In this document: positions 2,793 through 23,559 of the stretch, one piece after another
How positions within the stretch are numbered: the stretch's first letter is position 1
Layout: every line of letters starts with the position of its first letter
Origin: Lymnaea stagnalis
Lineage: Eukaryota
DNA: 23,559 bases
Direction of reading: 5' to 3'
Assembly (NCBI GenBank): GCA_964033795.1
Contig: CAXITT010000282.1
Coordinates: 484,790-508,348, forward strand
Notes under the pieces: model-generated
What the model was told of the DNA's origin: nothing
What the model saw: only the letters and a program-made list of their open reading frames with translations
The model's database searches: none
Position numbers and translations under genes: made by a program

Positions 2793-3290
2793 TGGGTTAA
2801 GTTTGGGCTTCCTGGGTTAAGTTTGGGCTTCCTGGGTTAAGTTTGGACTTCCTGGGTTAAGTTTGGGCTTCCTGGATTAAATTTGGGCTTCCTGGGTTAA
2901 TTTTTAAGCTTCCTGGGTTAAATCTGGGCTTTCTGGGTTAAGTTTGGGGCAGCCTCAATTAGCTTGGGTTTCCTGGGTTAAGTTTGGGACAGCCTTGGTT
3001 AGTTTTTAAATGCCTTGGTTAGTTTAGGCTGCCTCTGTGAGTTTGGGCAGCCTCGGTTAGTTTGGGCGTCCTCGGATAGTTTGGGCATCCTGGGTTAATT
3101 TGGGCAGCCTTGGTTAGTGTGGGCTGTCACAGTTAGTTTAGGCTGCCTCAATTAGCGTTTGACATTCTTGATTAGCCTCAGACAGGCTTAGTTAGCTTTG
3201 GACATCCTTGGTTAGCTTTGGATAGTAGCTGTTAGTTTTTTGTTTGTTTGCAGCCTCAGTTTTGGATAGCCTCAGATTGTTTTCAACAGC
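2793..3290. repeat. 19-20-bp minisatellite ('gggttaagtttgggcttcct' grading into 'gttagtttgggcagcctcg'), copy 1 of 3
   Basis: Tandem units read directly. The same array recurs at 8150-8645 and 9195-9470, each time immediately 5' of the cassette-exon block. Confidence 0.9.
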
Positions 3291-4640
3291 CTCTATAAAT
3301 ATTGGTTCCCATGTCATTTTTTGTTAGATTCACCAATATATACAAATATATTGCTATGATTCTTGGTAATATTAACAACATTAAAAGTGAAAACTTGTGT
3401 GGGTGAAAATCATTGTTAAGCAGACTGGTTAATGTCTTAGCAACATCCGTGCCCCTCGTTTCTGATTATAGTCTATAATATTCCTTTTTGTTTTGACAGA
3501 ATCAGCTGAGCAAGATATTGATTTTGATAGTTTATTGGAATCCTTGGATTATTCTTATGGTGAGAAAGCACCTTAATGGCTGGTTTTGTTTTCAGGTTTA
3601 GAATTGGAGTGCGCTCTATTTATATTTCAGTGGTTTCCAAACTGTTTATGTGTCACCAGGCCCTAGCTGCTTCTAGGTTTTTCCCAAAACACCATCTTTC
3701 AAGTGACTTAATAATAAACGAAATTAAGTTGATTATTATATATTTAAATTAATTTAAAACTGAGACAGTGCAAAACTGAAAGCTATTTATATATAAGCAC
3801 AAAGCATGAGAAACTGCTAACAAAATAGATAAAGTTATAAATTGAGTAGCCCCTGCTAGTATCCATTTGAAAAGGCTTTGCAAAACAGTTATTACAAAGT
3901 GAGTTACTAGTTTGTAATGAAAGCACTAAATATCATGTAACATTACCGGATGACATATTGAACCACTTTGGGGCACCCCTGTGAGAGAGAGCCGTGGCTT
4001 GCCAAAGCGTGCAGCTTAGGCACCTATCTTATATGTTTATACTTTTTCTATATCAACAGCTTTATAAAAGGGAACAGGTACAAAAATGAAAAGTAATAAC
4101 CATAAGGAAACTCTTGACTTTGCAATCAGGAGTTCACTGTACACCATGTGTACACCAGAAAAATATCTATTTGGAAAACAAATTGATTGCATCAAACCCA
4201 TTCAAAATTTCAAATTATTCCGTCCGTTGCGGAGCAATAACCCATCCCCATAACAAAGGCACAGAGCTTGTCATTAGTTAAAACTTAATTATAGTTATTT
4301 CTAGACTCTAGACTCCCAAATTGAACAGAATTGACATGTACATTTGTAAAGGCAAAATAACCAAGTGTCTAATTATAAAAATAAATCTAACTAAAACAAT
4401 GTCATTTAATTCTGAAATTACTGTATCCTTAAAATTTCTTCATCTATACAAAATTGAATTACCAAGTCACAATCTTATCTAATCATAAATTTAATAAATT
4501 TCTTTAAAAAAAAATTGAAGTGTTACAACTGTGTAAATAATAAAATTGGGGTGCAAATGCAGAAAAATTTGATCAACTTACAAAAGAAGGCATACAAATT
4601 CTTTGAAACTTTTCATTAAATTAATTCTCAAGTGGATTAT
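3290..4640 (+). repeat. Cassette-exon-bearing duplicated block, copy 1 (full length, about 1.35 kb)
   Basis: It aligns colinearly with 9470-10800 (full) and 8650-9215 (5' part only) at roughly 85-90% identity. Confidence 0.85.
3500..3559 (+). CDS. Candidate 60-nt phase-1 symmetric cassette exon, copy 1 (..E-SAEQDIDFDSLLESLDYSY-G..)
   Basis: Acceptor 'ttcctttttgttttgacag' and donor 'GTGAGA'. Both the phase-1 and phase-0 frames are open; phase 1 was chosen because it is the phase the strong acceptor at 16100 (E6) requires of the preceding exon. The exon and its splice sites are conserved in all three duplicated copies. Confidence 0.35.
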
Positions 4641-4807
4641 CGGTACTTCAATTTTAATTCACTGCAAAAATTATTAATATTCACACTTTCGATAAAACAA
4701 ACGTTCTTTTGCATTAAAACATATTTACTTCTTTTATTAAAGTCTTCCGCAAATGTGGTGGCCAAATTTGAACAATATCGTCTGTCAAAAAAATTATGAA
4801 GATCTCC

Positions 4808-6440
4808 TTTAGCCAGCTCATAAGCTGACCATGCCACTTTTCCCCTGAAATCTTAGCTCTATATTAGTATATGCAGTACTCATTGTTCAGCATCTGACAG
4901 GATAGAGGTAATCCCTCTGAAAATCTCTCTGGTTACACTACCAAGCCTGGGTCAGATACTTTGTGAAGAATTACCCCTTTAATCCCCAGTGTACTATGAC
5001 TGGAAGGCGAGACATATGCTGGTAAATCATATCCTACTGATCTTAGTCATTGCCATCTGATTTTTCACTCATCTTCTTCCTTAGGCCACATATTATCTCC
5101 TGTTGCAAAGAGTATGTCACCCTGTTCTGAGTGGTCCTCACAAAGTTATTGGAATTTTTCACAAGTTTTTAAAGAACCTTTAAAAGACAAAGATACACAT
5201 CTACTGCATAACATCCCTACACAAACATTTTTAAAAATATAACTCCTCGAACTGTTACGTTAGCGTGATGTAGAAATAAAATACCGCAGCTATTGTTGTT
5301 GTCATAGTTTTGGGTTTGAAATGTTGCATGTTCCAATTGTGGCACACCGGGCAAATCTGTGACCACCAGGACTAATGGTATCTTTTGGTGTTGTACAACT
5401 TTAACAACTCTTAAAATGTCCTCCACCTCTAACGTTACATGTTTGAGAAAAGATGATACAATTGAAGCAAAGGCTGTAGTGATACAACCTTCTAATAATG
5501 ATTCAGCACCTGTTTTCTGACGAGGACTCGTGAGATTAAACAGGTGGAGCAATAAATAATTTACCATGGTGTCTGTCTTAAGCATCTGCATGTCTTACTC
5601 CTTATAATGAAGTCTGATCCATGTGCAGATGATGCATCATCTCAAGATTTCTTCCTTGATGATGTTCTACTAACTTCAACGGAGGAGCAAGCACCCATGA
5701 AAAAGAGCAAGAAAGGGAAAAAAATTTATGGCATGGGGATAAAGTTGGACTCAACTGCACAACCCCCAGCAGGTAGAGTGACAGAACCACTAAACCATTT
5801 TCTTCTTTCTATCAACGCAGCGTAGCCAATTAAAACATTTTGTTTTTTTGAGTCTGAAGTGCTAATTTACAGGAAATACCACAGTAGAAAGTGGAACAAG
5901 AGAGGATGGGACTAGTTAGCCTTGGAAGGGAACTCATCTAAGAGAAGGCAAACTCTGAATTCAAACCAGGAGCCAAAATGATCAATAAATTGATCGTGGC
6001 CCCTCAAAAATAAAGGGCTCTGCGTTTTAGGTGTCCTAAAAGTGGGAGCGGCTGCTGTTTTCTTGTTCAAGTGCAAGATGGATGTACAATTTTTTTCAGA
6101 CAATTTCCTCCGGAAAGGGTGGGAATTTCAGATTTCCGGGTGAGCAGTGCCAGTTGCATAGCTAAGGGTGGGGGGAACAGAAGGGACAAATGTGTCCAGG
6201 CGGCAGACTATTCGGGATGCGAAAATAGAGCTTTTTAATGGGTTTCAGAGTTGGGGGGAGGTGGGATAAAAATGAATCTTGTCCCCTGATGCCCTAACAC
6301 TCCAGCTGCCACTCTGCTAGTGGTGTAAAAAGGGGGTTGGGCATGGATGGGCTGGTCCACCTAGGTTTTTCTTTATATGGAGCGGCAGCATGATCGGACA
6401 ACTGCAGAGTTTGTATCATGAAAGGTGAGTGGGCCAAAAA
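4808..6440. repeat. Segmentally duplicated block R, copy A (about 1.6 kb)
   Basis: Colinear with 11216-12935. It contains one copy of a 50-bp motif (5325-5380) that is expanded sixfold in copy B. No TIRs or TSDs are discernible, so it is treated as part of the tandem segmental duplication, not as a transposon. Confidence 0.8.
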
Positions 6441-7539
6441 TCTTAAGTATGTGAAGGACTTCACTTCTTCCAGTGCCTTTCTTGCCAGAGAGATATGCTA
6501 TTGTTTGGCTGAGTTTACCTTCATGATCATTGTCTTGTTTCATTTATATTGAGTCTGAGCTGTGCTGAAATGGAGAATACGTCTTTCATCTTTTCCTGTA
6601 TTTGTTGCTGGTTGTGGGACAGAAGAAGTGCTACATCATATGCATAGTCTAGGACATTCAGTTGTTTACAGTTTCCCAGAGTGTGCACTGTATCCCGTTC
6701 CTCTTTTTGTCTGTGGATTTTTTCATTATCCAATCAATGGTGAGGATGAATAGGAAAAGGGACAAGAGACATCCCTTCAGTGTCCACTTTAAAGTCATCA
6801 GTGAGTCTACATTCGTGGACCACCCTGCAAAGGTGGTTTTGTATCGTGTTATTAAAGTCTTTAAAACTTGTAAAGTTTGCAAAAAATAAATAATCGAGAA
6901 TACTGATATGTGCGAATTATACAGATAATCAAATTTATTGAGTGCAGCGATATTTCATAGGCTCCAATAATTGTAATTGGTTCAAGGCACCAGTTACTAT
7001 TATTTTTAAAAACATAAAAATAACAATTGCTCTATTTTTTACAAATAAAATATAGTTTCTTTTTATTGTTATAAATTTGTCTTTTTGTGGGGTGGGGTGG
7101 GGGAGTGGGGGCACTTGACTTTCCGTGGGGGAGCCCGGAAAGATTCCTGAAAGTGACACTGAGTGGAATCACTTAACAAGAGTGCATAGAGTTAGAGAAA
7201 TATATCCTACCTAGTTCACATATTCTCTCTGATGGATAGATGGAAGGTTTATGCCAAAATAAATCATATTCATATTAAACATGGAATCTACCAACACTCC
7301 ATTTAGGTATGTCAACAAAACTGCTGCAACCCAAATGATGCTTGCACTGGTGTTCACACAAAGAATGCATAAACTATATCGATGAGCAAGAAACGCAAAC
7401 TGAAAAGATAGTTAGGCATTAGCCACACATCTATCACTTCTTATTCCCTTCATTGTTACTTCAGGGAAAATCTATGATAAACTCAAGCTCTGTTAGCCGA
7501 GATATTATGTTCTTTTCATACATTAAGTTGTTACAATTG

Positions 7540-8135
7540 TTTCTAGTTTTAAAATGTTGTTTTGGCAGGAATATGTGCTAAAATGAATGTGTACAATGAA
7601 ATTAAAAATGTTTGCATTTCATTAGATTAATAGAAGAATCTAATCATATAAAAAGAATAACCTGATAGAATATAGCTCTTCAGACCCAAAAACTACAATT
7701 TGTGAATAGCAGCTGCCGAAGTGCTAGATTAACTTTTTTTCATTTTAACATTAACTCCCACAGAAATTCTTAAACTGAGTGATGATGCCAATTTCATGTA
7801 AGTCTTAGCTTAACTAGTTTTTGAATTCTATTATTTTCTGATAAGTTTGGTCTCAATTCCTGGAAGGCGTATGTTCACTGACCTGATGACAGATGTCCAT
7901 ACTGCACATGTTGGTGGTGCCATGAGACTTGACCGTGTTGATACTATATTTTCTTACTTGCTTGATGCTGACAGTGCAAATTTGGACACAGTGGTCATGT
8001 TTCCCAAGTTTCAGCATCTCATAAACAATCTCGATGAAGTGCATGAAATTCATTTTAAATAAAACATTTCCGCTTTGATGAATCTATGGCTCATCACTTT
8101 GGTCGTCATGGGTGCAGAGAAAGTATTTGGCTAGT
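7540..8135. repeat. Segmentally duplicated block S, copy A
   Basis: Colinear with 13140-13690 at roughly 93% identity. Both copies carry a 71-codon TTG-initiated ORF, but 6 of 8 substitutions between copies are nonsynonymous, so it is not scored as coding. Confidence 0.8.
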
Positions 8136-8149
8136 TTTTTACAGCATTT

Positions 8150-8645
8150 GTTTTTTGGGGCAGCATCGGTTAGTTTGGGCAGCTTCGGTTAGTTTTGGCA
8201 TTCTTGGTTAGTTTGGTTAGTTTGGGCATCCTCTTGGTTAGTTTGGGCATCTTCAGTTTGGGAGCCTCGGTTAGTTTGGGCATTGTTAGTTAGTTTGGGC
8301 ATTGTTAGTTAGTTTGGGCATCGTTAGTTAGTTTGGGCATCCTCTTGGTTAGTTCGGGCATCTTCAGTTTGGGAAGCCTCGGTTAGTTTGGGTAGCCTCG
8401 GTTAGTTTGGGTAGTCTCGATTAGTTTGGGTAGCCTTGGCTAGTTTGGGCATTGTTAGTTAGTTTGGGCAGCCTCAATTACTTTGAACAGCCTATATAAA
8501 TTTGGGTAGCCTTGCTTAGTTTGGGCATCCTCAATTCGTGTGCGACATTCTTGATTAACCTCGGAACGCCTTGGTTAGTTTTGGACAACTTTGGTTAACT
8601 TTGGAGAGCAGCTGTTAGTTTTTTTTTTTTTTTTGCAGCCTCAGT
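8150..8645. repeat. 19-20-bp 'gttagtttgggc...' minisatellite, copy 2
   Basis: Same unit family as 2793-3290. It ends in a T15 run at 8618-8635. Confidence 0.9.
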
Positions 8646-8875
8646 TTTGGATAGCCTCAGATAATTTTGAACAGGCCCTATAAATTCACCAATAAATTTA
8701 GATTCACCATTGTGTACTAATTTTGCTGTGGTTCTTTGCAATATTAACAACATTAAAAGTGAATACTCGTGTGGGTTGAAAGTCATTGTTAAGGAGACAG
8801 TTTAATGTCTTAGCAACATCTGTGCCCCTGACTTCTGATAATCATTTCTAATATTCCTTTTTTTGTTGTTGACAG

Positions 8876-8938
8876 AATCAGCTGAGCCAGATATTGATTT
8901 ATTTAGTGAGACTCAAGCTTTTCAATCCTTGGATGATG
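8876..8938 (+). CDS. Candidate 63-nt phase-1 symmetric cassette exon, copy 2 (..E-SAEPDIDLFSETQAFQSLDD-G..)
   Basis: Acceptor 'ttcctttttttgttgttgacag' and donor 'GTGAGA'. The frame is open and the length difference from copy 1 is +3 nt. Confidence 0.35.
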
Positions 8939-9194
8939 GTGAGAAAGCACCTTAATGGCTCAAAACAGCGGGTTTAGAATGGGAGTGTGCTCTATTTATA
9001 TGTCGGGGTCTCCAAACTGTTTTCGTGTCCCCAGCCCCTTTCTGCATCTAGGTTTTTCCCAAAACACCACCTTTCAAGTGACTTAATAATAAACGATATT
9101 AACTTGATAAATATGTTTAAATGAATTTAAAACTTGAGCAGTGCAAAACTGACAGCTTTTTATATATAAGATACAAAGCTTGAGAAACTGTTAA

Positions 9195-9470
9195 ACAAAT
9201 TTGTCTCAGTTAGTTTTGGGCATTCTGGGTAAGTTTCGGGAGCCTCGGTTATTTTGGGCATCCTAGGTTAGAATGGATAGTTTGGGCATTCTCTGTTAGT
9301 TTGGGCAGCCTCTGTTAGTTTTGGCTGCCACAATTAGCATTGAACATCCTTGATTAGCCTCGGACAGGCTTAGTTAGTTTTGGACATCCTTGATTAGCTT
9401 TGGATAGCAGCTGTTAGTTGCTTTTTTTCAGCCTCAGTTTTGTATAGCCCCAGATAGTTTTGAACAGCCT
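9195..9470. repeat. 19-20-bp minisatellite, copy 3 (short)
   Basis: It follows the truncated cassette block 8650-9215 directly and precedes the full cassette block 9470-10800. Confidence 0.85.
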
Positions 9471-9676
9471 CTATAAATTTTGGTTCCCGTGTCATTTTTG
9501 TTAGATTCACCAATATGTATAAATATATTGCTATGAGTCTTTTCAATATTAACAACATTAAAAGTAAATACTCGTGTGGGGTGAAAGTTAATTTTAAGCA
9601 GCCAGGTTAATGTCTTAGCAACATCTGTGCCCCTGGTTTTTTATGATAGTTTCGAATGTTCCTTTTTTTTGGACAG

Positions 9677-9739
9677 AATCAGCTGAGCCAGATATTTATT
9701 TATGTAGAGAGACGAAAGCTTTTCAATCCTTGGATGATG
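9677..9739 (+). CDS. Candidate 63-nt phase-1 symmetric cassette exon, copy 3 (..E-SAEPDIYLCRETKAFQSLDD-G..)
   Basis: Acceptor 'cctttttttt..ggacag' and donor 'GTAAGA'. The frame is open. Compared with copy 2 there are 4 nonsynonymous and 1 synonymous changes, so there is no sign of purifying selection and this copy may be decaying. Confidence 0.28.
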
Positions 9740-10988
9740 GTAAGAAAGCAACTTAATGGCTCCAAATAGCCACCTGGTCTAATGTTGGCTTTAAAATGGG
9801 AGTGTGCTCTATTTATATGTCAGAGGTTTCTAAACTGTTTTAGTGTCACCTGGCCCTTGCTGCTTCTAGGGTTTTCCCAAAACACCAACTTTCAATTGAC
9901 TTAATAATGAACGATATTAAGTTGATAAATATATGTTTAAATTAATTTAAAACTTGAACAGTGCAAAACTGATAGATATTTATATACAAGACACAAGGCT
10001 TGAGAAACTGCTAAACAAAATTGATAAAGTTATAAATGGCGTAGCCCCTGCTTGTATCCATTTGAAAAGGCTATGGCTAACAGTTATTACAAAGTGAGTT
10101 ACTAGTTTGTACCGAATCCACTAAATGTCATGTAATATTACAGGATGACATTTTTTAACACTTGGCGGCACCCCTGTGAGGAAGCCCTGGCTTTCCACAG
10201 TGTGCATTTTAGGAACCTATCTTATATGTTTAAGCTTTTTCTAGAGCAATGGCTTTATAAAAGTTAAAGGGAACAGGTACGAAAATGAAAAGTAACAACC
10301 GTAAGGAAACTCTTGTTATTGCAATCTGGAGTTCACTGTACACCATGGGTACACAAGAAAAATAGCTATTTGGAAAACAAATTGATTGCATCAACCCCAT
10401 TCAAAATTTCAAATAATTCCGTCTGTCTGTCGGGGAGCAATAACACATCCCCATAACAAAGGCACAGAGCTTGTTATAGTTATTTCTAGACTCCCATATT
10501 TAACAGCATTGACATGTATATTTGTAATGGCGAAATGAAACCAAGTGTCTAATTATGATGTAAAGCTAACTAAAACAATGTCATTTAATTCTGAAATTTC
10601 TATAACCTTACAATTTCTTCACTTATACAAAATCATAAATGAATTACCAAGTCAAAATCTAATTATAAATTTAATTAAAAATTTAAAAAATTGAAGCTTT
10701 ACAACTGTTTAAATAATAAAATTGCGGTGCATTTGCAGACAAATTTGATCAACTTACAAAAGAAGGCATAATAATTCTTCAAAACTTTTCTTTGCATTAT
10801 TTCCTAATGAATCTTTCATACTGGTACTCACACGGATACTCATTCAGATACTCATTCATTCTAATGGCTGCTTAAGCAGGACAAGTGGGTCATCATATCT
10901 GTAGTGTCTGAATGTATTTGTTAGTTTAGTTTATCTAAAAAAATCTGTTCAGATCATTGATGAAAAAAATGTTGAACATATTTTTCAG

Positions 10989-11036
10989 ATAAGCAAAAGA
11001 CATCAAGATTAGCAAAGACATCAGCAGAAGAGGAAG
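10989..11036 (+). CDS. Candidate 48-nt phase-1 symmetric exon (..D-KQKTSRLAKTSAEEE-G..)
   Basis: Acceptor 'atatttttcag' and donor GAAG|GTACAG. Only the phase-1 frame is open; the other two hit TAA/TAG. It has no counterpart in duplication copy A. Confidence 0.3.
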
Positions 11037-11215
11037 GTACAGTAGAGAAGCATGCTTGCATATTTTAACTCTCTTTAAGTTCCTGAATAAATATGTTTTA
11101 GATTAAAATGATAGGTCAAATAATATTTTACAGATTGTATGTGTAAGTTTTGGCATCATTGGGTTTGAACCAATTATTGCAATTACTGCAGACACACGCT
11201 CTATAAAGCCTGTTA

Positions 11216-12935
11216 GACCACTCATAAGCTGACCATGCCACTTTTCCCTGAAATCTTAGCTCTATATTAGTATATGCAGTACTCATTGTTCAGCATCTGA
11301 GATGATAGAGGTAATACCTCTGAAAATCTCTCTGGTTACGGTACCAAGCCTGGGTCAGATATTTGCTGAAGAATTAACCCATTTACCCCCATTGTTCCAT
11401 GACTGGAAGGCTAGACATGTACTGGTAATTTATATCCTACTTATCTTGGTCATTGCCATACGATTTTTTCACACATCTGCTTCCTTAGGCTATAAATTAT
11501 CTCCTGGTGCAAAGATTGGTCATCCTGTTCTAAGTGGTCCTCAAAAAGTGATGGGAATTTTTCTCACATTTTTTAAGCACCATTCAAAGACAAAGAGATA
11601 CACATCCACTGCATTACATCCCTACACTAACATTAAAAAAATATAACCCCTTGAACCGTTATGTTATAGTGAAAAAAAATAAAACACATCAGTTATTATT
11701 GTTGTCATAGTTTTGGATTTGAAACTTTGCATGTTCCAAATTTGGCACACCGGGCAAATCTGTTATCACCAGAATGTTGCATGTTCCAATTTGGGCACAC
11801 CGGGCAAATCTGTTACCACCAGAATGTTGCATGTTCCAATTGTGGCACACCAGACTAAATCTGTGACCACCAGAATGTTGCATGTTCCAATTGTGGCACA
11901 CCAGGCAAATCTGTGACCACCAGAATGTTGCATGTTCCAATTGTGGCACACCGGCCAAATCTGTGACCACCAGAATGTTGCATGTTCCAATTGTGGCACA
12001 CCAGGCAAATCTGTGACCACAAGGACTAATGGTATCTTTTGGTGTTGTACAACTTTAACAACTCTGAAAATGTCCTCCACCTCTAACGTTACATGTTTGA
12101 GAAAGATGACACAATTGAAGCAAAGGCTGTAGTGATGCAACCTTCTGATGACGATTCAGCACTTTTTTTTCTGATGAGGACTCGTGAGATTAAACAGGTT
12201 TACAGGAGATATAGCAGGTGCAACAATAAATAATTTACCATGTGCCTGTCTTAAGCACCTGCATGTCTTATTCCTTATAATGAAGTCTGATCCATGTGCA
12301 GATGATGCGTCATATGCAGCTCAAGATTTCTTCCTTGATGATGTTCTGCAAATTTCTAACAGATGGATAAAGGCTGACCAAACTGCACAACCTCCAGCAG
12401 GTAGAGTTACTGAACCACTAAATCATTTTGTTCTTTCTATCAATTGGGCGTAGCCAATTAAAACATTGTGTTTTTTTAGTCTTAAGTGCTATTTTACAGG
12501 AAATACCACAGTACAAAAAGGAAGAAGGGGCTCTGGGTTTTAGGTTGCCTAAAAAGAGGGAGTGGCTGCTGTTTTCTTATCAAGTGCTAGACAGACGTGC
12601 GATTTATTTCAGACAATTTCCTCGTTAAGAGGGTGAATTTCATATTTTCGGGTTAGCAGTGCCAGTTGCATAGCTGAGGGTGTGGGCTCAGAAGGGACAA
12701 ATGTGTCCAGGCGACAGACTACCGGGTATACCAAAATGGGCTTTTTAATGGGTTTCAGGAGTTTGTGGGGGGGGGGATAAAAATGAATCTTGTCCCCTGG
12801 CGCCAAACACTCCAGCTGCCACTCTGCTAGTGGCGTAAAAAGGGGGGTGGGCATTGATGGGCTGGTCCACCCAGGTTTTTCTTTATATGGAGCGGCAGCA
12901 TGATCAGACAACTGCAGAGTTTGTATCATGAGAGG
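11216..12935. repeat. Segmentally duplicated block R, copy B
   Basis: Colinear with 4808-6440 and offset by about 6.4 kb. Confidence 0.8.
11727..12022. repeat. About 50-bp tandem repeat, roughly 6 units ('gttgcatgttccaattgtggcacaccaggcaaatctgtgaccaccagaat')
   Basis: Units read directly. The orthologous position in copy A (5325-5380) has a single unit, so this is a copy-specific expansion. Confidence 0.9.
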
Positions 12936-13139
12936 TGAAGGGGGCGAAAATTTTGGCCCGCCTGTTGGGGCACTTCAACTAGCTACGTCACTAGGCAGTG
13001 TGACCATCAGCACCAAAATTGGTCATCATTTTTATTGGGAAATAGGGCTGATACCGAGGGCTCCGATTGCTCTTGTGTTGAAGATTGGCATGATACTGTA
13101 TTCTTATCTTAAAAAGATTAATTAAAAAAACAATTAATT

Positions 13140-13690
13140 GATAAAACAATTGTTGTTTTGGCAAGAATATGTGCTAAAATGAATGTGTACAATCAATTAT
13201 AGAAAAAATTTAATTGGATTAATAGAAGAATATTATCAATAAAAGATAGAGACCCAAAAAACCACGATTTGTGAATAGCAGGTGCCAAAGTGTTGGATTA
13301 GCTTTTTTAATTTTAATATTAACTCTCACAGAAATTCTTAAGCTGTTTCTGGATGACGATGCCAATGTCATGTAAATCTTGGCTTAACTAGCTCTGAATT
13401 CCAATATTTTCTGATAAGTTTGGTCTCAATTCCTGGAAGGCGCATGTTCACTGACCTGATGACAGATGTCCATAATGCACATGTTGGTGGTTCCATGAGA
13501 CTTGACCGTATTGATACTTTATTGTCTTACTTGCATGATGCTGACAGTGCAAATTTGGACACAGTGGTCATGTTTCCTAAGTTTCAGCATCTCATAAACA
13601 ATCTCGATGAAGTGCATGAAATTCATTTTAAATAAAACATTTCAGCTTTGATGAATCTAGGGCTCATCACTGGTCGTCATGGGTGCAAAC
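13140..13690. repeat. Segmentally duplicated block S, copy B
   Basis: Colinear with 7540-8135. Confidence 0.8.
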
Positions 13691-14077
13691 AATATAATTG
13701 GGGAAAGCCCATAGTATAGGGTTTGGTTTATGCTTTTCCGTGGTACAACGTGCCTGGGCAAAATATGTTTTTTTCAGCCATATCACGGTAAACATTGTTT
13801 GTGCATCATTTCTCCTTCAGTTGAGAGAAGAACACCCTTGGACAATACCATTTTGCACTTCATAACCTTTTCTCAAGTTTTGCACTTCTTGATAAGCTTA
13901 GTTCAATGGGACGTTAGGGAAAATGCAGCAGTATCAGTGGATTTGGCTAGTGTTCCATTTTTGCAACACCACATAACTCAACAATGGTCACCGTTCCCTT
14001 CAAATTCTTCCTATGTGAATTTTATGTAACCTTCATGAATTTAATACAAAAAATAAATAAAATACAATGTGCAGCAT

Positions 14078-14400
14078 AAATGGGTAAACTGTTGTCGAAG
14101 CGGCAGATTCCCCTGTTTTCGAAGCGGCAGATTCCGCTGTTGTCCAAGCAGCAGATTCCCCTGTTGTCCAAGCGGCAGATTCCCCTGTTGTCCAAGAAGC
14201 AGATTCCCCTGTTGTCGAAGCAGCAGATTCCGCTGTTGTCCAAGTGACAGATTCCGCTGTTGTCCAAGCGGCAGATTCCCCTGTTGTCCAAGAAGCAGAT
14301 GCCCCTGTTGTCGAAGCGGCAGATTCCGCTGTTGTCCAAGTGACAGATTCCGCTGTTGTCCAAGCGGCAGATTCCCCTGTTGTCCAAGAGGCAGATCCCT
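14078..14400. repeat. 24-bp GC-rich minisatellite, about 13 units of 'ccaagcggcagattcccctgttgt' and variants
   Basis: Perfect 24-bp periodicity. It is open in all six frames, which explains track ORFs 14022-14387, 14033-14452 and 14069-14410. Confidence 0.9.
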
Positions 14401-14687
14401 CCTGATCTAGGCTAAAAGATTGATATAAAAATACCATGTACATCAAACCCATAAGCTATGTCTGGCAGCTTAGTTTGGCCATGTACCATGTATTCTTACT
14501 ATATATTTCAGTTTCAGTTTACGCATTTGATGTTTCCTCACATGAAAAGGAAAGAAAGGCTGCATCAGCAGCTGTTGACCAATCAGATCATTGTAGGACT
14601 TCAGTAACATATGAAGATCAGGAAAAAGATCAGGAATCATCAACGTGGTCAAATAATATGTGTAAAAAAAAATTTTCCTTCTTGATT

Positions 14688-15515
14688 TTTTTTTTTTTTT
14701 ACCTTATATCAGTTTCTTTACCTTATAACAAAATTAGAAAAATCAGCACCATTAGACACCTCCTCTCCTTTGATGCCACAAAAACTCTCGTCTCTTCACT
14801 CATTCTTTCAAAATTTGACTACTGTAACACGCTTCTCGCAGGCATACCTCAACACCACATAAACAAACTTCAGAAGGCACAGAACTCAGCATGCAGACTC
14901 ATTTTTTAAATCAAAGAAACATGACCACATTCAACCACACATGCGGCAACTCCACTGGCTTCCAATATCCTCTCGCATCAAGTACAAGTCTGCCAATCTA
15001 TGCTTCAACTCGTTCACTGACCCTCACTTTCCTGTCTATCTCTCTGAACTATTGCTTCCTTACATCCCCACAAGACAACTACGCTCTTTCATTGACAATA
15101 GAACCCTCTCAATCCCAAGAACCAAAACTAAGACCATCGGTGAACGCTCCTTCTACTTCCATGGGCCCACGTTCTGGAGCCAGCTCCCCTTCCATATCCG
15201 TCATTGTGAAACTTCGTCCACTTTCAAAAAGTCCCTTAAAACCCATCTGTTTAGGTCTGCCTATGACCTGTGATGCACCCTCCTTGCCCTGCCTCATTTT
15301 TTGTCTCAGGTTGATCCTGTATAATAGGCCAAAACTTGCCAAAGTGTCCCCGTTTTATAGCCATTTTAATTGTTTCTATAGTATAATAGTTACTATCCTA
15401 GTGTCTCATTTTTATTTTACTTAGTTTACATGTTTTTAATAATTGTAAAGCGCTTAGAGCTTTAAGGTAAGCGCTATATAAAAATGCCTAAATAAATAAA
15501 TAAATAAATAAATAA
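14688..15515 (+). mobile_element. Decayed non-LTR-type retroelement fragment carrying the widespread metazoan 'DYCN...LHWLP...LKTHLF' ORF, with a 5' T-run and a 3' (AAAT)6 tail
   Basis: Translation across two frames gives ..RKISTIRHLLSFDATKTLVSSLILSKFDYCNTLLAGIPQHHINKLQKAQNSACRLIF* followed by a frameshift to ..QLHWLPISSRIKYKSANLCFNSFTDPHFPVYLSELLLPYIPTRQLRSFIDNRTLSIPRTKTKTIGERSFYFHGPTFWSQLPFHIRHCETSSTFKKSLKTHLFRSAYDL*. This motif set occurs as an interspersed-repeat ORF in many fish and invertebrate genomes. The 3' end is 'ctaaataaataaataaataaataaataa' (15490-15515) and the 5' boundary is approximate. Confidence 0.6.
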
Positions 15516-15774
15516 CGGTTATAAATTTTATTAATATTAACTATTTTTATTAGCTTACTAGGCAATACACCCGGTGTTGCTCGGGTTTGGATTCAGAATA
15601 ACTTCTATAGAGTTATCAACTGACATGTAAATTTAAAGCCCAAATTTAATTTTCCAGGACTTCCAGGGGTGAGAGGATGTCCTGGGAATTTATTTTATCA
15701 CACTAGAGAAATCCTAATCCTGTTTCCCAAGCACACGCATGAAGTCAGAATCAGTGTCGGCCAGCCTTCACAAC

Positions 15775-16030
15775 ACACATGACTACCCGCATCCACAACA
15801 TGCACCAGCACCACACCTGACTACACTAGCACCACACCTGACTGCACCAGCACCACACCTGACTGCACCAGCACCACACATGACTGCATCCACAACATGC
15901 ACCATCACCACACCTGACTGCACCAGCACCACACCTGACTGCCCGCATACACAACATCACCAGCACCAAGCCTGACTGCACCAGCAGCACACCTGACTGC
16001 ACCAGCACTACACCTGAATGCACCAGAACC
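15775..16030. repeat. 24-bp minisatellite, about 10 units of 'caccacacctgactgcaccagcac', immediately upstream of the big exon's acceptor
   Basis: Read directly. It generates track ORFs 15739-15975(+) and 15826-16032(-). Confidence 0.9.
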
Positions 16031-16100
16031 ACATGCTTACCTTAATGTTACTCCTTCACATATTAAACTTAGATTACATTAATTGTTTTCCTTTTAACAG

Positions 16101-17383
16101 ATAAGTCGTTGGTCGGTGTGAGGGAAAAGAGCCAAGACCGGATTTACAGACCAGCATTTGCGAAGTCAAAAGCCAGTTATAAACCACCATCCCTCGCGGC
16201 CAGCCTCACTCAACGATCTCAAATTCTTCCAACACAGACTTCTTCTCCAATGAGTTATATGTCACCACTTCAAACTCGGGCCAGCTGCTCACTTGAAATT
16301 GCCCCACCGCCACTTAGAAGCACCTTGGCTACACTACCACTTAATATTCACGTTCCACCACCACCACCACCACCTGGAGGTGGTCCCCCACCACCACCAC
16401 CATCTGGAAGTTGCCCTCCTCCACCACCACCACCTGGATTTTGTCCCCCTCCACCAACAGCTAGAATGTGGGCCCTTCCACCACCACCTTCTGCAGGTTT
16501 TGGTTTTGTTCTACCTGCGCCTGGTAGTGTTGCTCCAGGTTTTGGTTCTGAGCCTCCTTCAGCTGGTAGTTTTGCTCCACGTTTTGGTGGTGGTCCTCCT
16601 ACAGCTGGTAGTTTTGTTCCAAGTTTTGGTGATGGTCCTCCTACAGCTGGTAGTTTTGTTCCAAGTTTTGGTGGTGGTCCTACAGCTGGTAGTTTTGTTC
16701 CAAGTTTTGGTGGTGGTCCTCCTACAGCTGGTAGTATTGCTCTAAATTTTGGTTCTGAGCCTCCTACAGCTGGTAGTTTTGCTCCAAGTTTTGGTTCTGG
16801 TCCTCCTACAGTTGGTAGTTTTGCTTTAGGTTTTGGTTCTGGTCCTCCTACAGTTGGAAGTACTGCTCCATGTTTTGGTGGTGGTCTTCCTACAGTTGGT
16901 AGTATTTTTCCAGGTTTTAAAGCTGGTCCTCCTACAGTTGGTAGTTTTGCTTCATGTTTTGGTTCTGGTCCACCTACAGCTCGTGGTACTGCTTTAGGTT
17001 TTGGTTCTAGTCCTCCTACAGCTAATAGTATTGCTCTAGATTTTGGTTCTGGTCCTCCTACAGCTGATAGTACTGCTTCAGGTTTTGGTTATGGTCCTAC
17101 TGCAGTTGTTAGTGTTGCTTCAATTTTTGCTGGTAGGTCTTCAAGTGATAATTCTGACAGTGAACTTGAGGAAAGTGATAGTTTTTCAGTGTATCAACAA
17201 TCTCCTCCTGAGGTGATAGACTTAGCTCATCAGACCTGTGGCGAGAAGACACCAGAAAAAGGTTTACCCAGCAGTGAGCCTCTGTTCACCTTTGGTATCG
17301 GAGCAAAGTTGACGAGCATAAGAACAAGGGAAGACACCCTTAAAAGTGAGGACTTGGTCAAACTGATGGAGCTCCAACAAAAG
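16101..17383 (+). CDS. Large internal exon of a proline-rich, FG-repeat, low-complexity protein. The N-terminal part is serine/threonine-rich. It is followed by FH1-like polyproline tracts (16357-16462), then about 14 tandem 15-aa repeats 'GGGPPTAGSFVPSFG' (16490-17130), then an acidic serine-rich segment and a heptad-like tail 'DLVKLMELQQK'.
   Basis: A 435-codon open frame (track ORF 16109-17416, whose 'start' is TTG). It is entered through the strong acceptor 'ttgttttccttttaacag' ending at 16100, in phase 1; the in-frame TAG at 16070 lies upstream of the acceptor. The 45-bp DNA repeats stay in frame, including one 42-bp unit, which shows the indels are triplet-constrained. The exon either exits at the AAG|GTGCGT donor at 17383/17384 in phase 0 or runs on to the TAG at 17414-17416. 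Confidence 0.7.
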
Positions 17384-17439
17384 GTGCGTCTGCTGAGGCT
17401 AGAATCTTTGGTATAGTCTTATTTCAATGAGGGTGCATA

Positions 17440-17640
17440 CCGACAGACTTGTAAAGCTTTAATTACCGCCTAACTACCGATAGACTTATAAAGCTTTAAC
17501 TAACAGGAAAATTACAGATAGACTTATAAAGATTTAAATAGGGGCTAATTGCCGATAGACCTTTAAAGCCTTAACTACAGACTAATTACAGATAGACTTT
17601 TAAAGCTGTAAATACAGGCTAATTGCCGACAGCAGAGAAA
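17440..17640. repeat. About 44-bp AT-rich tandem repeat ('ctaattaccgatagacttataaagctttaa...'), roughly 4.5 units
   Basis: Read directly. It lies immediately 3' of the big exon. Confidence 0.8.
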
Positions 17641-17939
17641 CTTTAAATACATGCTGAGTATGAGGGGTCGAACTGAGACAAATCTTGTAATACAGCCTGC
17701 TGAACCTGATCTAAAGTTGAGATTAAGGTGTCTGTATTGGTCTGACTCTGGGTGTAATGGCTCCTGCACTGTGTTCCTTGTGATCTCGAACTTTAAGTCA
17801 TTTCAAAAATTATTATTCCATTAAATTTCAAATTGGTCTTTCAAATGAATAGAATTTCAAATAAGTCCATGTTTAGTAAAAATTGCTTCTTTCCTTTTAT
17901 TTTTTCATCAAAGGTGATAGAGGAAGTCCTGAGGTAGCC

Positions 17940-18400
17940 CACAGCCAGTTTTAGACTAACAGAAAGCATTCCTTACACTTTCTACTAGACTAACACAAGC
18001 ATTCTTAATCATTTTATCATGGACAAACACAATCATTCCTTTTTTACTTTCTACTAGACCAGTGTTTCTCAACCTTCCTAACGCCATGACCCTTTAATGC
18101 AATGCCTCATGTTATGGTGACCTGAATCATAAAATTATTTTCAACGCTTCTTCATATATATGTGTTTTCCGATCGTCTTAGGCGAGCCCTGTGTAAGGGT
18201 TTTTTCAACCTCCAAAGGGGTAATGACCCATAGGTTGAGAACCACTGTACTAGAATAACCCAATCATTCCTTTTTATTTTCTAACAGACAAACCCAATTA
18301 TTCTTAAATTACTTTCTGAAGGACCAACCCAATGATGCTAAAATTACTTTCTCTAGGACGAACCCAATTATTATAAAATTACTTTCTCAATCATTCATAA
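17940..18400. repeat. Degenerate tandem repeats of about 55-60 bp ('..caatcattcctttttactttctactagac..')
   Basis: The array is interrupted by the MITE at 18060-18247. Confidence 0.7.
18060..18247. mobile_element. hAT-like MITE (188 bp) with 15-bp terminal inverted repeats CAGTGTTTCTCAACC / GGTTGAGAACCACTG and an 8-bp target-site duplication TACTAGAC / TACTAGAA
   Basis: The TIRs match at 14 of 15 positions. The flanking 8-mers are 18052-18059 and 18248-18255, and an 8-bp TSD with a CAGTG.. terminus is the hAT signature. The element sits in one unit of the surrounding tandem repeat, and there is no internal ORF. Confidence 0.65.
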
Positions 18401-19188
18401 TAAATTTCTGATGGAATTACTCATTTTTTCCCAAAACATGTACCTGAGGTCATTTGGGGAGCGTTGTGATTGCTCACAGTGGTGAAATGTTTAAAAAACT
18501 TCATTAAGTATTACTACTCAACATCTTGTTTGGACTTTAAGTAAACCAGTAGCTCACTGAAAGCTGTTTCACAAGAGGCTTCACAAAATGTTACTGGATG
18601 GCTCTCTCTCTATTAAAATGGCATTTAAAATGTTGGCTTCTCAAACTTATTTCGTTCTTTGTTTTCATCTACAAGAGCTGTGTGTTCTGCACTGCCACGG
18701 TGTTGAATTAGTTGTTTTTTAAGATCATACTAATTGAATACAGTTTAGGATGAGTCAAGTTAAGTTTCTGAGGAATTTTTCTCCTTTGCAGTTTCAATAA
18801 CGAATCAGGTCTTCCTGAGCATTTGGAGAAAAAAGTATTTAAAAATTTTTAAAAAAAATTTAGCTTTTTTTTTATTGCTGTGGACGATTGAATTTGACAA
18901 GGGCGTACAAAACAATGCATCATGGGAGCAGAGTGTGGCAACCTCTTGTCTAACCCATACATTTCTCATTTCTCTCTCTTTGTCGAACCAATCCATTCCT
19001 CTTTACTCTCTCATGTGTAGCATGTTCGTTTCTCATAACTACCTCTTGCACTAACCCATTCATGCCTCATTACTCTCTCTCCTTGACTAATCCATTAATT
19101 TCTCCTTATTCTTTCCTCATTACTTTATTAGGAGTAAAACATTTTTCCTCAATACTCTCTTATGGTCATCTTTTTCTGTATCTTCCAG

Positions 19189-19288
19189 GATGGTGGCTGG
19201 AATTTGAATTCAGAGCTGGATCAGTTAATCGGGATTGACAGTGCTGCACTGGAGGCCATCTTATACAGCAGTGGACTCTCATCATTGG
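19189..19288 (+). CDS. Candidate 100-nt exon (DGGWNLNSELDQLIGIDSAALEAILYSSGLSSL-G), phase 0 in and phase 1 out
   Basis: Acceptor 'tttttctgtatcttccag' and donor GG|GTAATT. Only one frame is open. Its phase-0 entry matches the phase-0 donor at 17383, and its phase-1 exit matches the entry of the 20313 exon. Confidence 0.5.
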
Positions 19289-19439
19289 GTAATTCTTTAT
19301 AAAGGGAGGGAGGGGGGGTTGATTGACTTTATTGATTATGTCTATCCTTCATTCACATTATGTCTCCATCAGTTGACATTCATTCACCATGATGGGATGA
19401 GGGAGCTCAATTAGATGTTTAAGTGGGCAAATGAGAGGA

Positions 19440-19915
19440 GTGATGGCCAGAGAGAGGCCGGAGAGGGGCCAGAGAGAGATCTTAGAGACTAGAGAGGGGC
19501 CAGAGAGAGGCCGGAGGGGCTAGAAGTTAGGTATGTTGTTTTATGGAGGAGAAGATGTGCAGTGAGATGGAGAAGTAAAACAGTCGGGATGGTGGGTATT
19601 ATAATAGAGTATAAGGGGAAGAGCAGTGTATAGAGTAGACATTTGTAGTAGATGTTTGGAGTAGATGTTTGGAGTGATGTATGGAGTAGATGAATGGAGT
19701 AGATGTATGCAGTAGATGTTTGGAGTATATGTATGGAGAAGATGTTTGGAGCAGATAGTTCATAAAGAATTATAAATTAATATCAAATCTTCTAAATAAT
19801 ATACGTGTGACTGCTTTGAATTTTTTGTTTTTCGATTTTTAGGAAGCAACAACAACAACATGAGACATATCCGTAATCAATATCATTATTTTATATACTT
19901 AACAAAATTTTGGAA
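19440..19915 (+). repeat. Dispersed repeat family, copy 1. It has GGCCAGAGAGAGG repeats, then an embedded (GGAGTAGATGTW)n 12-bp satellite (19633-19757), then a conserved 3' tail '..catgagacatatccgtaatcaatat..'.
   Basis: Colinear with 23030-23559 in the same orientation, including the unique flanks on both sides of the satellite. Confidence 0.8.
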
Positions 19916-20312
19916 ATTTACATTTCAATTTGATTGAATTTATAAATTTGAAATTAAAAAAAAAATTACTGTACTTTGGAGGAGCTCCCAAAAGTATGAG
20001 CACAAGCTGTGTCCCTGGATCTTTGTCCCTAGATTTTCCCACTTAATTTAAATCTTTCTTTTTTTTCTTTTTTTTTTTTACTTAATACACATAACTCTAA
20101 AAAAATCCCCACAAAATAACAAGATCATGAAAAATCTACTAAATAATGTTTTCTGTGTAATCATTGCAACCACTTGTTTTTTCCCCCCAGGCAAATTCTA
20201 ATTTAATATATTTCATTTTAAGGTTGGGCAATGACCCCTATTGCTGTACATGTACTTTTATACATTTTTTTTATGAACGCCAACCCTTGTTAATTTCATA
20301 AAATTTATACAG

Positions 20313-20659
20313 GGGCAACTGCCGAAGGAAAAATTAGGAGCTATTTGGCAATGCTGTTGGTTCTTTTCTCCTTCCTGGAACTCGTACATTTTGATGTTGA
20401 TGTAGAAAAGTTTGTCTCCAAACATTTTTCTGAAGATGACATAATAGCTCTAGGCTCAAAATTAGAGCTGGCAGTGGAAGCGTGTGAGTGGGATGAAGAC
20501 CAGCTACATGCCTTATCTGAAGCTTTTGAAAAGATGTTTAAGTTTCATGATGAGTTTACCTCCAGACATCCACTTGTTTACAGCACCCTGGAGCTGGGCA
20601 AGAGCTGGGCAGATGTAGTCAACAAGCTCATGACACCACCAGGCTATTTCTTTCTTTAG
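20313..20659 (+). CDS. Candidate terminal coding exon (G-ATAEGKIRSYLAMLLVLFSFLELVHFDVDVEKFVSKHFSEDDIIALGSKLELAVEACEWDEDQLHALSEAFEKMFKFHDEFTSRHPLVYSTLELGKSWADVVNKLMTPPGYFFL*)
   Basis: The acceptor 'ttcataaaatttatacag' ends at 20312. The open frame (track ORF 20345-20659, TTG 'start') extends back to the acceptor in phase 1, and the G left over from 19288 plus GG gives Gly. It ends at a TAA at 20657-20659. An ATTAAA poly(A)-signal variant lies at about 20762. Confidence 0.5.
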
Positions 20660-20761
20660 ACAATGACCTCATAGTTCTTGACCAGGTCCACCTGTCTGCC
20701 GCACAGGTATCAATGTGGCAGTGACATCACAATAGACAAAAGCAGCCCCCATGCTGCTTAT

Positions 20762-20767
20762 TAAAAT
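20762..20767 (+). promoter_or_regulatory. Possible polyadenylation signal ATTAAA
   Basis: 'gctgcttattaaaattg' lies about 100 nt after the stop codon of the candidate terminal exon. AT-rich hexamers are common in this DNA, so the support is weak. Confidence 0.25.
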
Positions 20768-21149
20768 TGTAATAAGTTTTTGTTTTATGAAAATGTTCTT
20801 CATTTTAATTATTGTATTGCTTTTTATTTTGTTGCTCTACAAGTAAGATAAATGTGCAGCGTGTACAAAAATTTTAAAATATTTTTGTCAAACTTAAGTC
20901 CGGCCCCCAACAGCATCTGAGGGGCAGTAAACTGGTCTCCCATTCAAAAAATTTTGAGGACCTCTGATGTGGGTAACAAGCTTATTTTTTTTTTTTAACC
21001 AACGAGCTGAGAAGCTGTAAGGTCTTTTCGGAATCAGACATCATTAAACTGTTCTGCCAAGTGACAAACCTAAAATTTTGTTAAACAGTTAACTTGAGCA
21101 TGTCTGTGTTTCTGCAGGATTACTATAAATTAATGATTAAAATTTATTT

Positions 21150-21500
21150 TAAGAAATTGTTGTCAGAAAAATGTTCAGATTTTGAACCTGTGTTTTCAAA
21201 ATGAAGGTATACTCAAAATGATTATTACTTTTACCCAGAGCAATTATCTCCAAATACCCTCTCCTCCCTCCTCCCCCCCCCCCCATTTATTTCTAAATCT
21301 TTTTTTAAAAAAAATGTATCCATGTTAAAATTGTTGTCAGAAAAATGTTCAGATTTTGAACCTGTGTTTTCAAAATGAAGGTATACTCAAAATGATTATT
21401 ACTTTTACCCAGAGCAATTATCTCCAAATACCCTCTCCCCCCTCCCCCCCCCCCCCCCATTTATTTCTAAATCTTTTTTTAAAAAAAATGTATCCATGTT
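21150..21500. repeat. About 175-bp tandem duplication (2 units), each ending in a C-rich tract (CCTCCCTCCTCCCCCCCCCCC)
   Basis: Units at about 21155-21328 and about 21329-21500 are nearly identical. Confidence 0.85.
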
Positions 21501-22234
21501 GTTTGATAATAGAGCAGTGAGTGGTTGCTCAAAAAAAATAATAATACATTAACAAATGTTATTTCTGTGCCCACCATTTCAACTTTTTCTATCAGTTTAA
21601 AAAGTTAATGATCAAGGTTAGATTCTTTAAAAAAAACTTAATCAAACTAATGAATGTAAATAAGAATGATTTATACAAATGAGTTATATGAGAAAAAAAG
21701 TTTTTTTCAACATTTCTGTGTAGCTGTCATTGGTTTTTATCATTGGACGATACTTAATTTTATTTACACATTGAGACTAATAAATTCTTTTAAAGATTGA
21801 CCTTTTTGGACTAGTTCAGGGACTGCATTATTTGGGGTAAATAAATGTTTTAATTTACCACAAATGTGCGATATTGGAAGTAGTCATCAACTGATCTATG
21901 TTTTTTATTTCTAATGTTACTACAATACATTTTTTTATTTTTAAAGGAAGATGCAATAATTTCTTGATTAAAATTATCTCAACTGTCTCTTTGCTTCCAC
22001 TAATATTTTTAATAGTCTGCAACATATGCTAACACTGTGTTGTGATGTGTCTGCCATCAGCCACTTGCTGCCGAACCCTTCAACTTCAACAACAAGGCAT
22101 CTGCTTGCTTCTTTCAGACATTCATTTTTTTAAACACCATTAATATTATATTATCTTGGGACATTGTATGTAAACATAAACCTTGGGATATTTTATGTAT
22201 AGGCTGCTGCATACCAATATAATATGTATACTAC

Positions 22235-22325
22235 ATGAGAATACTTGTAAACCACATAACTTTATACTTAACTGTGTGACATTATATGTAAACCACATAA
22301 CTTTATACTTAACTGCGTGACAATA
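22235..22325. repeat. 41-bp tandem repeat ×2 ('tgtaaaccacataactttatacttaactgtgtgacattata')
   Basis: Read directly. Confidence 0.8.
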
Positions 22326-23029
22326 TATGTAAGGCTTGAATATATTTGAACTCGAAAGAGGAGCAATATCATGAGTTACAAAAAACAAAAACAAAAAAAT
22401 ACTAAACCGTTCATTGTCATTGTGGTGTAAATGAAGAACATTTTGAAGCAAGTTCATTAAAATTTTTAAAGTAATTTTTAAAACTAATGTTTTCAAAACC
22501 ACAGCTCTCCTTATGGAGTACACATTCTATATGCCTACAATAAAACTGACAGATCAAGGCAGTTTAGGCTTTGCCTTGCCCTATTAATAGCTCTTTCTAT
22601 TGTTTAGAAACATGTAAAGCTGATTGTGATATTTCGTCATATAAGTAGCCCTACATTACTGTCTGCACTATTGCTTATGTAAAAATATTACTGGCTGTGC
22701 TATTTTTTTATAGAGACATATACCTGACTGTGCTATCATTTAAAGAAATATATAACTGTTTGTGCTACTGTTTATATAAATGTTTGGAGGCATTTCCCAT
22801 CTTTTCAAGTTCTTCCATGTTTAACATAATTTTACATTTTGATGAGACAGAAAACTTTTAATTTCATTTTAGCTATAATTGTAATTACAATTCAATGAGT
22901 TTTATTGACAGTTAGAGCCAGCCTATTTGATTGCATTGTGTACACAAACTTGATTTTGTGATGCTGTTTAAATCAAATTGTTCTGTTACAACACAAGATG
23001 ATATAGGTCTGTGATGTATGAATCAAATT

Positions 23030-23559
23030 GAAAGAGGCCAGAGAAAGGCTAGGAGTAAAGTATGTTGTTTTATGGAGGAGAAGATGTGCATTGAGATGGA
23101 GAGTTAAAACAGTCAGGGTGATGGGTCAAGATGAGAGTATAATAGAGTATAAGGGGAAGAGCAGTGTACGGAGTAGATGTTTATAGTTGATGTATGTAGT
23201 AGATGTATGGAGTAGATGTTTGGAGTAGAAGCTTGGAATAGATGTTTGGAGCAGATGTATGGAGTAGATGTTTGGAGTAGATGTTTGGAGTAGATGTTTG
23301 GAGTAGATGTTTGGAGTAGATGTTTGGAGTAGATGTATGTAGCAGATGTATGGAGTAGATGTTTGGAATAGATCTTTGGAGTTGGTGTTTGGAGTCGATA
23401 TTTGTTAAGAAATTATAAATTTGTATCAATTTGGCTAAATATTATATGTAGGCATATGGCTTCTTTGGGTTTTTCGTGTCTCAATTTTTATGAAACAAAA
23501 AAAAATCATGAGACATATCCATAATCAATATAATTATTTTATATATTTAACAAATTTTG
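23030..23559 (+). repeat. Dispersed repeat family, copy 2 (runs to the window end), with a (GGAGTAGATGTW)n satellite at 23165-23400
   Basis: Colinear with 19440-19915. It generates track ORF 23181-23429. Confidence 0.8.

Follow-up and report, generated by a model that had tools for sequence, protein, structure and literature searches.

A putative coding exon with in-frame polyproline and FG tandem repeats in Lymnaea stagnalis

Here we describe a putative internal coding exon on the forward strand of Lymnaea stagnalis contig CAXITT010000282.1 (assembly GCA_964033795.1), found in a stretch of 23,559 nucleotides (positions 484,790 to 508,348; hereafter the window, to which all coordinates refer). 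A single open frame runs through a tandem array encoding polyproline and a second one encoding regularly spaced Phe-Gly (FG) dipeptides, and it continues into unique sequence at both ends. We give about even chances to the explanation that we favour, in which the frame belongs to a lineage-restricted orphan gene as a coding exon that is still functional or was so until not long ago, and the product is a slippage-built, cohesive and disordered FG/polyproline protein. The original prediction, made from the letters of the sequence without database searches, had seen a coding minisatellite in a real-looking exon, with FG-type repeats set in G/P/S/T/A spacers, and our analysis supports this as the best reading.

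Open frame, repeats and exon boundaries

The plus-strand frame read from 16103 has no stop between 16073 and 17413, a run of 447 codons closed by a stop at 17414-17416; the open reading frame (ORF) listing gives it as 435 amino acids (aa), starting from TTG at 16109. It is the longest run in the window, ahead of 246 codons (antisense, in the repeats) and 198 codons (overlapping the tail relic of a retrotransposon), and the frame is the window's strongest coding signal, as had been claimed. The frame crosses unique sequence on either side of the repeats without a stop in 94 upstream and 94 downstream flank codons; the other five frames contain 4-7 stops upstream and 3-12 downstream. Under first-order Markov resampling, this frame remained open in 3.1% of trials for the upstream flank (P = 0.031) and in 0.33% for the downstream flank (P = 0.0033). 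Joint openness of both flanks is thus expected at ~1e-4 per array-frame, or ~1e-3 to 1e-2 after counting the arrays and frames of the window. Frame +2 is open over 163 codons (16254-16742), within the repeats only, and the exon frame alone crosses both flanks, as first proposed. The antisense run (16351-17088, minus strand, 246 codons) encodes PKPxAxLPAVGGPE-type repeats and poly-Gly, closes at the edges of both arrays and shares its third codon positions with the sense frame.

Tandem Repeats Finder places the FG array at 16494-17119, with a period of 42, 15.0 copies, 82% matches and a score of 685. The unit is therefore 42 bp or 14 aa long and not 45 bp or 15 aa as originally proposed, the boundary GGT having been counted twice. 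Cut after each F-G (Table 1), the array comprises fourteen units of 42 bp and one of 39 bp (16673-16711); the variant lengths of 45 and 42 bp given earlier were too long, and the inference that indels are triplet-constrained stands. Instead of about 14 FG-type repeats there are 15 units, 13 of which end in FG, one in FK and one in FA. The polyproline block is itself a tandem repeat (16354-16456, period 30, 3.4 copies, 83% matches), so that two tandem expansions account for about 60% of the exon. Its five units read PPPPPPPGGG, PPPPPPSGSC, PPPPPPPGFC, PPPPTARMWA and LPPPPSAGFG, with three runs of 6-7 Pro spaced 10 residues apart and two runs of 4 Pro; FG is already present at the end of the last unit, and the block merges gradually into the FG array. 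Periods and length variants are all multiples of 3 bp and the same frame extends into both flanks, as in a coding minisatellite. All peptides quoted in the original prediction are present in the translation (PPPPPPPGGGPPPPPPSGSCPPPPPPPGFCPPPP; PSFG, LGFG, PGFG and CFG; SSSDNSDSELEESDS).

A strong acceptor and a reasonable donor bracket the stop-free frame, which therefore reads as an internal exon (Table 1). The acceptor at 16100/16101 is the best candidate within 16073-16260. An alternative putative donor, AAA/GTGAGG, lies at 17345/17346 in phase 1, and if neither donor is used the frame runs 10 more codons to the stop at 17414-17416. The splice boundaries of 16101-17383 are putative consensus matches, and its expression is likewise putative. 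Immediately upstream of the exon, the reverse complement of 16036-16043 (minus strand) reads AAG/GTAAGC, a near-perfect 5' splice-site consensus, which is probably due to chance because all minus-strand frames nearby contain stops.

Downstream, a plus-strand ORF of 121 codons (20294-20656) contains a weak candidate for the terminal exon. This ORF is acidic, helix-prone and protein-like, its acceptor at 20312/20313 is good, and ATTAAA follows ~105 nt past its stop. This acceptor fits the 17345 donor by phase, a match for which the chance from phase alone is 1/3. Searches with the ORF returned no homologues, no Pfam match and no PDB match, and its AlphaFold2 model (20315-20656) is helical with low confidence (mean predicted local distance difference test, pLDDT, 52.6). 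The idea that the tail LVKLMELQQK and this ORF together form a VWA5A/PARP4-like C-terminus was supported by no search and was dropped.

Table 1 Features of the putative exon and a candidate partner exon (slash, splice junction; K+R and D+E, numbers of basic and acidic residues; pI, isoelectric point)
Feature	Coordinates	Strand	Description
Putative 3' splice site	16081-16100	+	aattgttttccttttaacAG/AT; 12/15 pyrimidines; 27 nt past upstream in-frame stop
Putative internal coding exon	16101-17383	+	1283 nt; 2 nt finishing a codon, then 427 full codons; phase 1 in, phase 0 out
N-terminal flank	16103-16354	+	Residues 1-84; unique; basic (K+R 11, D+E 3, pI 10.4); S/L/P/A-rich; pLDDT ~40
Polyproline block	16355-16504	+	Five 30-bp / 10-aa tandem units
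FG-repeat array	16505-17131	+	15 units x 14 aa, cut after each F-G; consensus DNA TCTGGTCCTCCTACAGCTGGTAGTTTTGCTCCAGGTTTTGGT encoding SGPPTAGSFAPGFG
Acidic serine-rich patch	17138-17182	+	SSSDNSDSELEESDS; residues 346-360
Sole predicted helix	17345-17377	+	Residues 415-425, SEDLVKLMELQ; low confidence, pLDDT 34-45 thereabouts
Putative 5' splice site	17384-17389	+	AAG/GTGCGT; phase 0; 30 nt ahead of downstream stop
Weak candidate downstream terminal exon	20313-20659	+	Acceptor tttatacAG/GG, phase 1; 114 codons; stop 20657-20659

Predicted polypeptide and variation between repeat units

Behind a basic, Ser/Pro-rich N flank without leader-like character (the exon encodes no signal peptide), proline makes up 56% of residues 85-134. 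The FG array (residues 135-343) consists mainly of G (22%), P (17%), S (14%), F (11%) and A (11%), with 24 Phe and 8 charged residues (4%), 3 of them K or R, among its 209 aa and a grand average of hydropathy of +0.28. The product contains 15 FG dipeptides in total, with a maximum of 14 per 200-residue window. The C flank (17132-17383, residues 344-427) is acidic (D+E 16, K+R 9, pI 4.5) and begins with SSSDNSDSELEESDS, a patch that might serve as a casein-kinase-type phosphorylation cluster. A single-sequence AlphaFold2 model of the exon product shows no confident fold (mean pLDDT 46.5), and the product is predicted to be intrinsically disordered. The FG array is modelled as beta hairpins with a pLDDT of 50-60, which are probably a hallucination of the kind typical for repeats. 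The heptad-like tail that had been proposed comes down to one short low-confidence helix (residues 415-425), and it acquires a heptad-like pattern only when translation continues through the 10 codons past the putative donor.

A working definition of FG domains asks for at least 5 FG per 200 aa (PMC8311347), a density that the array exceeds nearly threefold, with 14 per 200 aa at a charged fraction of 0.04 and a mean pLDDT of 46.5. The same density of 14 FG per 200 aa is found in human NUP153 and POM121 (PMC8311347), and Nup98 FG domains, which have an FG roughly every 12 residues, carry extremely little charge and phase-separate readily (PMC9579204). By composition, the array belongs with such charge-depleted cohesive FG domains. 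It shares with FG-nucleoporins the regular FG (here one per 14 residues), the G/P/S/T/A spacers, the low charge and the lack of a predicted fold, but differs from them in its young, near-perfect DNA repeats, in the polyproline ahead of the array, in having no detectable homology and in having no anchoring domain within the scanned frames (see below). Short regular FG tandem repeats also occur outside the nuclear pore, in human trophinin, an extracellular protein of homophilic adhesion with decapeptide FG-rich tandem repeats, and in the GLH/Vasa helicases of C. elegans P granules (PMC8311347). Multivalent FG-FG cohesion has been proposed for these proteins as well, but their unit length and sequence are different and they show no sequence relationship to the exon product.

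The variation between units singles out the FG dipeptide. The TTT codon of F13 is intact in 15 of 15 units, whereas 8 of the 15 depart from the same TTT codon at position 9 (Fisher P = 0.002), and GGT is retained 13 times out of 15 at unit position 14, compared to 5 out of 15 at position 12. This retention of F13 and G14 argues for protein-level constraint on the FG dipeptide. Differences between units fall on codon positions 1, 2 and 3 at a ratio of 39/36/7, and 37 distinct codon variants are non-synonymous versus 2 synonymous ones (binomial P = 2.7e-4). Summed Nei-Gojobori proportions of non-synonymous (pN) and synonymous (pS) differences are 0.229 and 0.056, respectively, giving a pN/pS of ~4 that has to be read with caution, the units of one array being non-independent of each other. 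Of the third positions in the array, 99% carry A/T, and the first two positions are rich in G/C; part of the excess of pN over pS is due to GC-to-AT mutation bias. The codon-phase skew was considered as strong evidence for coding and then downgraded, since a non-coding 24-bp array in the window is skewed too. Overall, the unit variation is compatible with homogenisation of the array combined with diversification of its spacer positions.

Homology searches and competing explanations

Searches with the exon yielded no homologue beyond its repeats. A word-indexed search with the whole exon saturated at 8000 low-complexity candidates, none of which scored, and one with the unique N and C flanks concatenated with the ORF at 20.3 kb gave no match at E <= 0.01. 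An exhaustive phmmer search against 1.84 billion cluster representatives likewise returned no match to the unique flanks; all of its 64 matches fell within residues 69-350, that is, in the proline or FG repeats. These (including a bacterial trimeric autotransporter adhesin, a sigma factor with a repeat tail, a VAO-like protein of Mya arenaria, an uncharacterised fish protein and a trypanosome protein) were rejected as compositional. The searched library includes mollusc proteomes, from which Littorina and Mya entries surfaced, so the absence of flank homologues is not merely a eukaryote gap. No significant Pfam match was obtained for the exon or for 24 other ORFs on both strands, and a PDB sequence search with the exon returned noise only, without a nucleoporin chain. 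Exact-sequence look-up of five ORFs of the window found none of them, metagenome and viral contigs scanned with the flanks contained no related locus, an exact DNA scan of metagenomes for the repeat unit gave nothing, and a full-text literature search for four repeat peptides produced no match. The original statement that the combination cannot be assigned to a known family is borne out by these searches.

Several observations weigh against a coding exon. Pfam detected no domain in any of the three plus-strand frames of 8101-16102 (8 kb upstream) and 17384-23559 (~6.2 kb downstream), and no convincing partner exon was found upstream or downstream within the window. The first in-frame ATG appears only at 16250, in a weak context and with none earlier, which makes an internal exon the natural reading. 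The openness of the upstream flank reaches just P 0.03 by itself, and the nearly wholly non-synonymous variation between units is unlike simple purifying selection. A 24-bp minisatellite at 14089-14404 (13 copies, 87% matches), which is non-coding, has no stop in any of its six frames and is phase-skewed as well (5/4/15, P = 0.01). The surroundings are gene-poor and made of transposon relics and minisatellites. Much of this would fit a non-functional open frame, that is, a neutral minisatellite expanded in a decaying pseudogene or in intronic or intergenic DNA, where the repeat unit happens to lack stops and the C-rich flanks are stop-poor. The ~25 minisatellites of the window, two of which bracket the exon, the lack of any homologue and a pN/pS above 1 point in the same direction. 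We nevertheless regard such a frame as unlikely, if quite credible, because the array and both flanks are jointly open in one frame, the flanks are open in only one of six frames, every length change comes in triplets, canonical splice signals lie at the edges of the frame, and the FG dipeptide is kept while identical codons elsewhere in the unit change.

Among functional alternatives, the molluscan context leans instead towards the secreted class of repetitive low-complexity domain (RLCD) proteins, in which the exon would encode a matrix or structural protein, found for instance in the shell matrix, periostracum, mucus or egg capsule. Its G/P/A/S/F repeats would then form an extracellular elastomeric or hydrogel network, its acidic patch would bind calcium and an upstream exon outside the window would encode the signal peptide. 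Among the shell matrix proteins of molluscs, about 30% contain repeats of ~10 aa, frequently with much Gly/Ala, and show lineage restriction and evolution by slippage (PMC4897951), and the array fits the description of an RLCD (short units, biased G/A/P/S composition). It resembles these proteins in its lineage restriction, its G/A/P/S-rich repeats (~10-14 aa), its slippage-driven evolution, its disordered or hydrogel-like character and the acidic patch such proteins often have, but the FG-specific conservation and the polyproline runs are not described in PMC4897951. Extracellular FG-repeat proteins such as trophinin are known (PMC8311347), a neighbouring transposon relic is gastropod-like (Littorina match), and an exon that begins at a splice acceptor leaves room for a leader exon. 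A crude upstream scan of the window for a signal-peptide exon of compatible phase found no convincing candidate, although the first exon may lie beyond the window, and the basic, Ser/Pro-rich N flank is unlike a leader. Runs of 6-7 prolines are, moreover, more typical of ligands of cytoplasmic or nuclear adaptors. Taken together, we consider a secreted matrix protein improbable but worth serious attention.

The two likenesses drawn in the original prediction, to nucleoporin FG domains and to formin FH1 regions, hold for composition and motifs and fail for domain context. No FH2, nucleoporin anchor or other domain was found within 8 kb upstream and 6 kb downstream, and the exon is therefore neither a demonstrable formin nor a demonstrable nucleoporin. 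A genuine nucleoporin (Nup62, Nup58, Nup54, Nup42, POM121, Nup153 or Nup214 class) whose FG domain is encoded here and whose anchor is encoded outside the window would account for the FG density, the charge depletion, the PSFG, GFG and SFG motifs and the need for partner exons, and FG domains evolve too quickly for sequence searches to recognise. Against this, neither the Pfam nucleoporin FG models nor the nucleoporin chains of the PDB were matched, and no anchor domain (e.g., Nsp1_C, the Nup98 autoproteolytic domain, a beta-propeller or zinc fingers) appears in the scanned plus-strand frames. The units, 82% identical in DNA, form a young regular array, whereas in most metazoan nucleoporins the repeats are old and degenerate, and we know of no nucleoporin in which an adjoining polyproline block is a feature. 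A nucleoporin exon is thus highly unlikely in our view. Still harder to sustain, and barely conceivable to us, is a formin FH1 exon, or one from a related actin regulator (WASP, WIP or VASP class). Its appeal lies in the three runs of 6-7 Pro 10 residues apart, the short G/S linkers and the GPPPPPP and LPPPP motifs, which are shared with formin FH1 and with profilin, SH3 and EVH1 ligand tracts. Here, however, the tracts form a 30-bp tandem repeat merging into the FG array, and a 209-aa FG array with an acidic tail stands where FH2 directly follows FH1 in formins. No FH2, WH2, EVH1 or other actin-regulatory domain occurs in the scanned frames, and no formin is among the phmmer matches. The same frames contain no MAGE domain and no DEAD-box helicase.

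For the favoured orphan-gene exon, we propose growth by replication slippage or unequal exchange of the in-frame 30-bp and 42-bp tandem repeats. Mollusc genomes are noted for repetitive low-complexity proteins that are lineage-restricted and evolve by slippage (PMC4897951), in keeping with this proposal. The product would then have four modules: the basic Ser/Pro-rich N flank, tracts of polyproline II (PPII), the FG array, rich in G/P/S/A/T/F and almost without charge, and a Ser-rich acidic tail that includes a single short helix. The FG array may act as a multivalent cohesive low-complexity domain, whose Phe, at regular spacing, would make it self-associate into a condensate or hydrogel in the manner of charge-depleted FG domains, with the charged flanks tuning solubility. 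Polyproline tracts are ligands of proline-recognition modules (profilin, SH3, WW and EVH1), and the tracts encoded here (GPPPPPP, LPPPP) may offer PPII docking sites for these modules. We lean towards an intracellular scaffold, because the N flank is basic and lacks a leader and because the prolines form runs similar to ligands of the XPPPPP/LPPPP type. A more specific scenario, which we rate as rather unlikely, is a very young, taxon-restricted FG protein unrelated to nucleoporins, in which a 42-bp FG unit derived from a 30-bp proline-rich repeat and then expanded to 15 copies, with FG held by selection and the spacers kept diverse in a PRDM9-like manner.

Genomic setting and significance

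The window has a G+C content of 30-47%, and Rfam and tRNA scans of it returned no matches. Two unrelated minisatellites flank the exon closely, one upstream (15801-16033, 21-bp unit TGCACCAGCACCACACCTGAC) and one downstream (17438-17655, 37-bp unit). Upstream of these, 14424-15515 (plus strand) is the relic of a C-terminal region and tail of a retrotransposon without long terminal repeats, ending in (TAAA)n at 15489-15515; it shows 75% aa identity to a hypothetical protein of Littorina saxatilis, 81-84% to metagenome proteins and 82-84% DNA identity to two contigs (L001 and L002). Farther upstream, a segmental duplication of ~5 kb (2792-8130 versus 8165-13701) comprises several collinear blocks of 75-86% identity and carries 19-20-bp minisatellites (2793-3220, 8158-8532 and 9278-9404). 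By eye, its ORFs resemble retroelement relics (a YADD-like box; minus-strand ORFs at 6530-6954), which Pfam does not confirm. Downstream of the exon lie an element of ~210 bp resembling a miniature inverted-repeat transposable element (18049-18258), with 27-nt terminal inverted repeats that are 81% complementary (...CAGTGTTTCTCAACCT / AGGTTGAGAACCACTG...), and a 174-bp unit duplicated in tandem (21154-21500), which must be very recent because its copies are 98% identical. A dispersed repeat with 80-82% identity occurs at 19503-19910 and 23030-23558 and includes 13-bp arrays of GGAGTAGATGTTT (19627-19756 and 23170-23404).

At present, the exon is one further uncharacterised low-complexity orphan of the familiar taxon-restricted, repeat-built and disordered kind. 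Orphan exons built from repeats escape homology-based gene finding, which calls for caution in annotation, and open frames are frequent in the minisatellites of this window, so that such calls need transcript support. If the scenario of a very young FG protein is correct, the array would represent the birth of a natural cohesive FG domain with near-perfect repeats, comparable to the engineered prf.GLFG52x12. If the exon is expressed, it would provide a natural FG-type low-complexity domain of the cohesive kind that is not part of the nuclear pore, in an unusually regular and young array whose minisatellite origin is still legible in the DNA, and could be useful for understanding the origin of such domains and the smallest repeat number and the spacer chemistry that cohesion requires.

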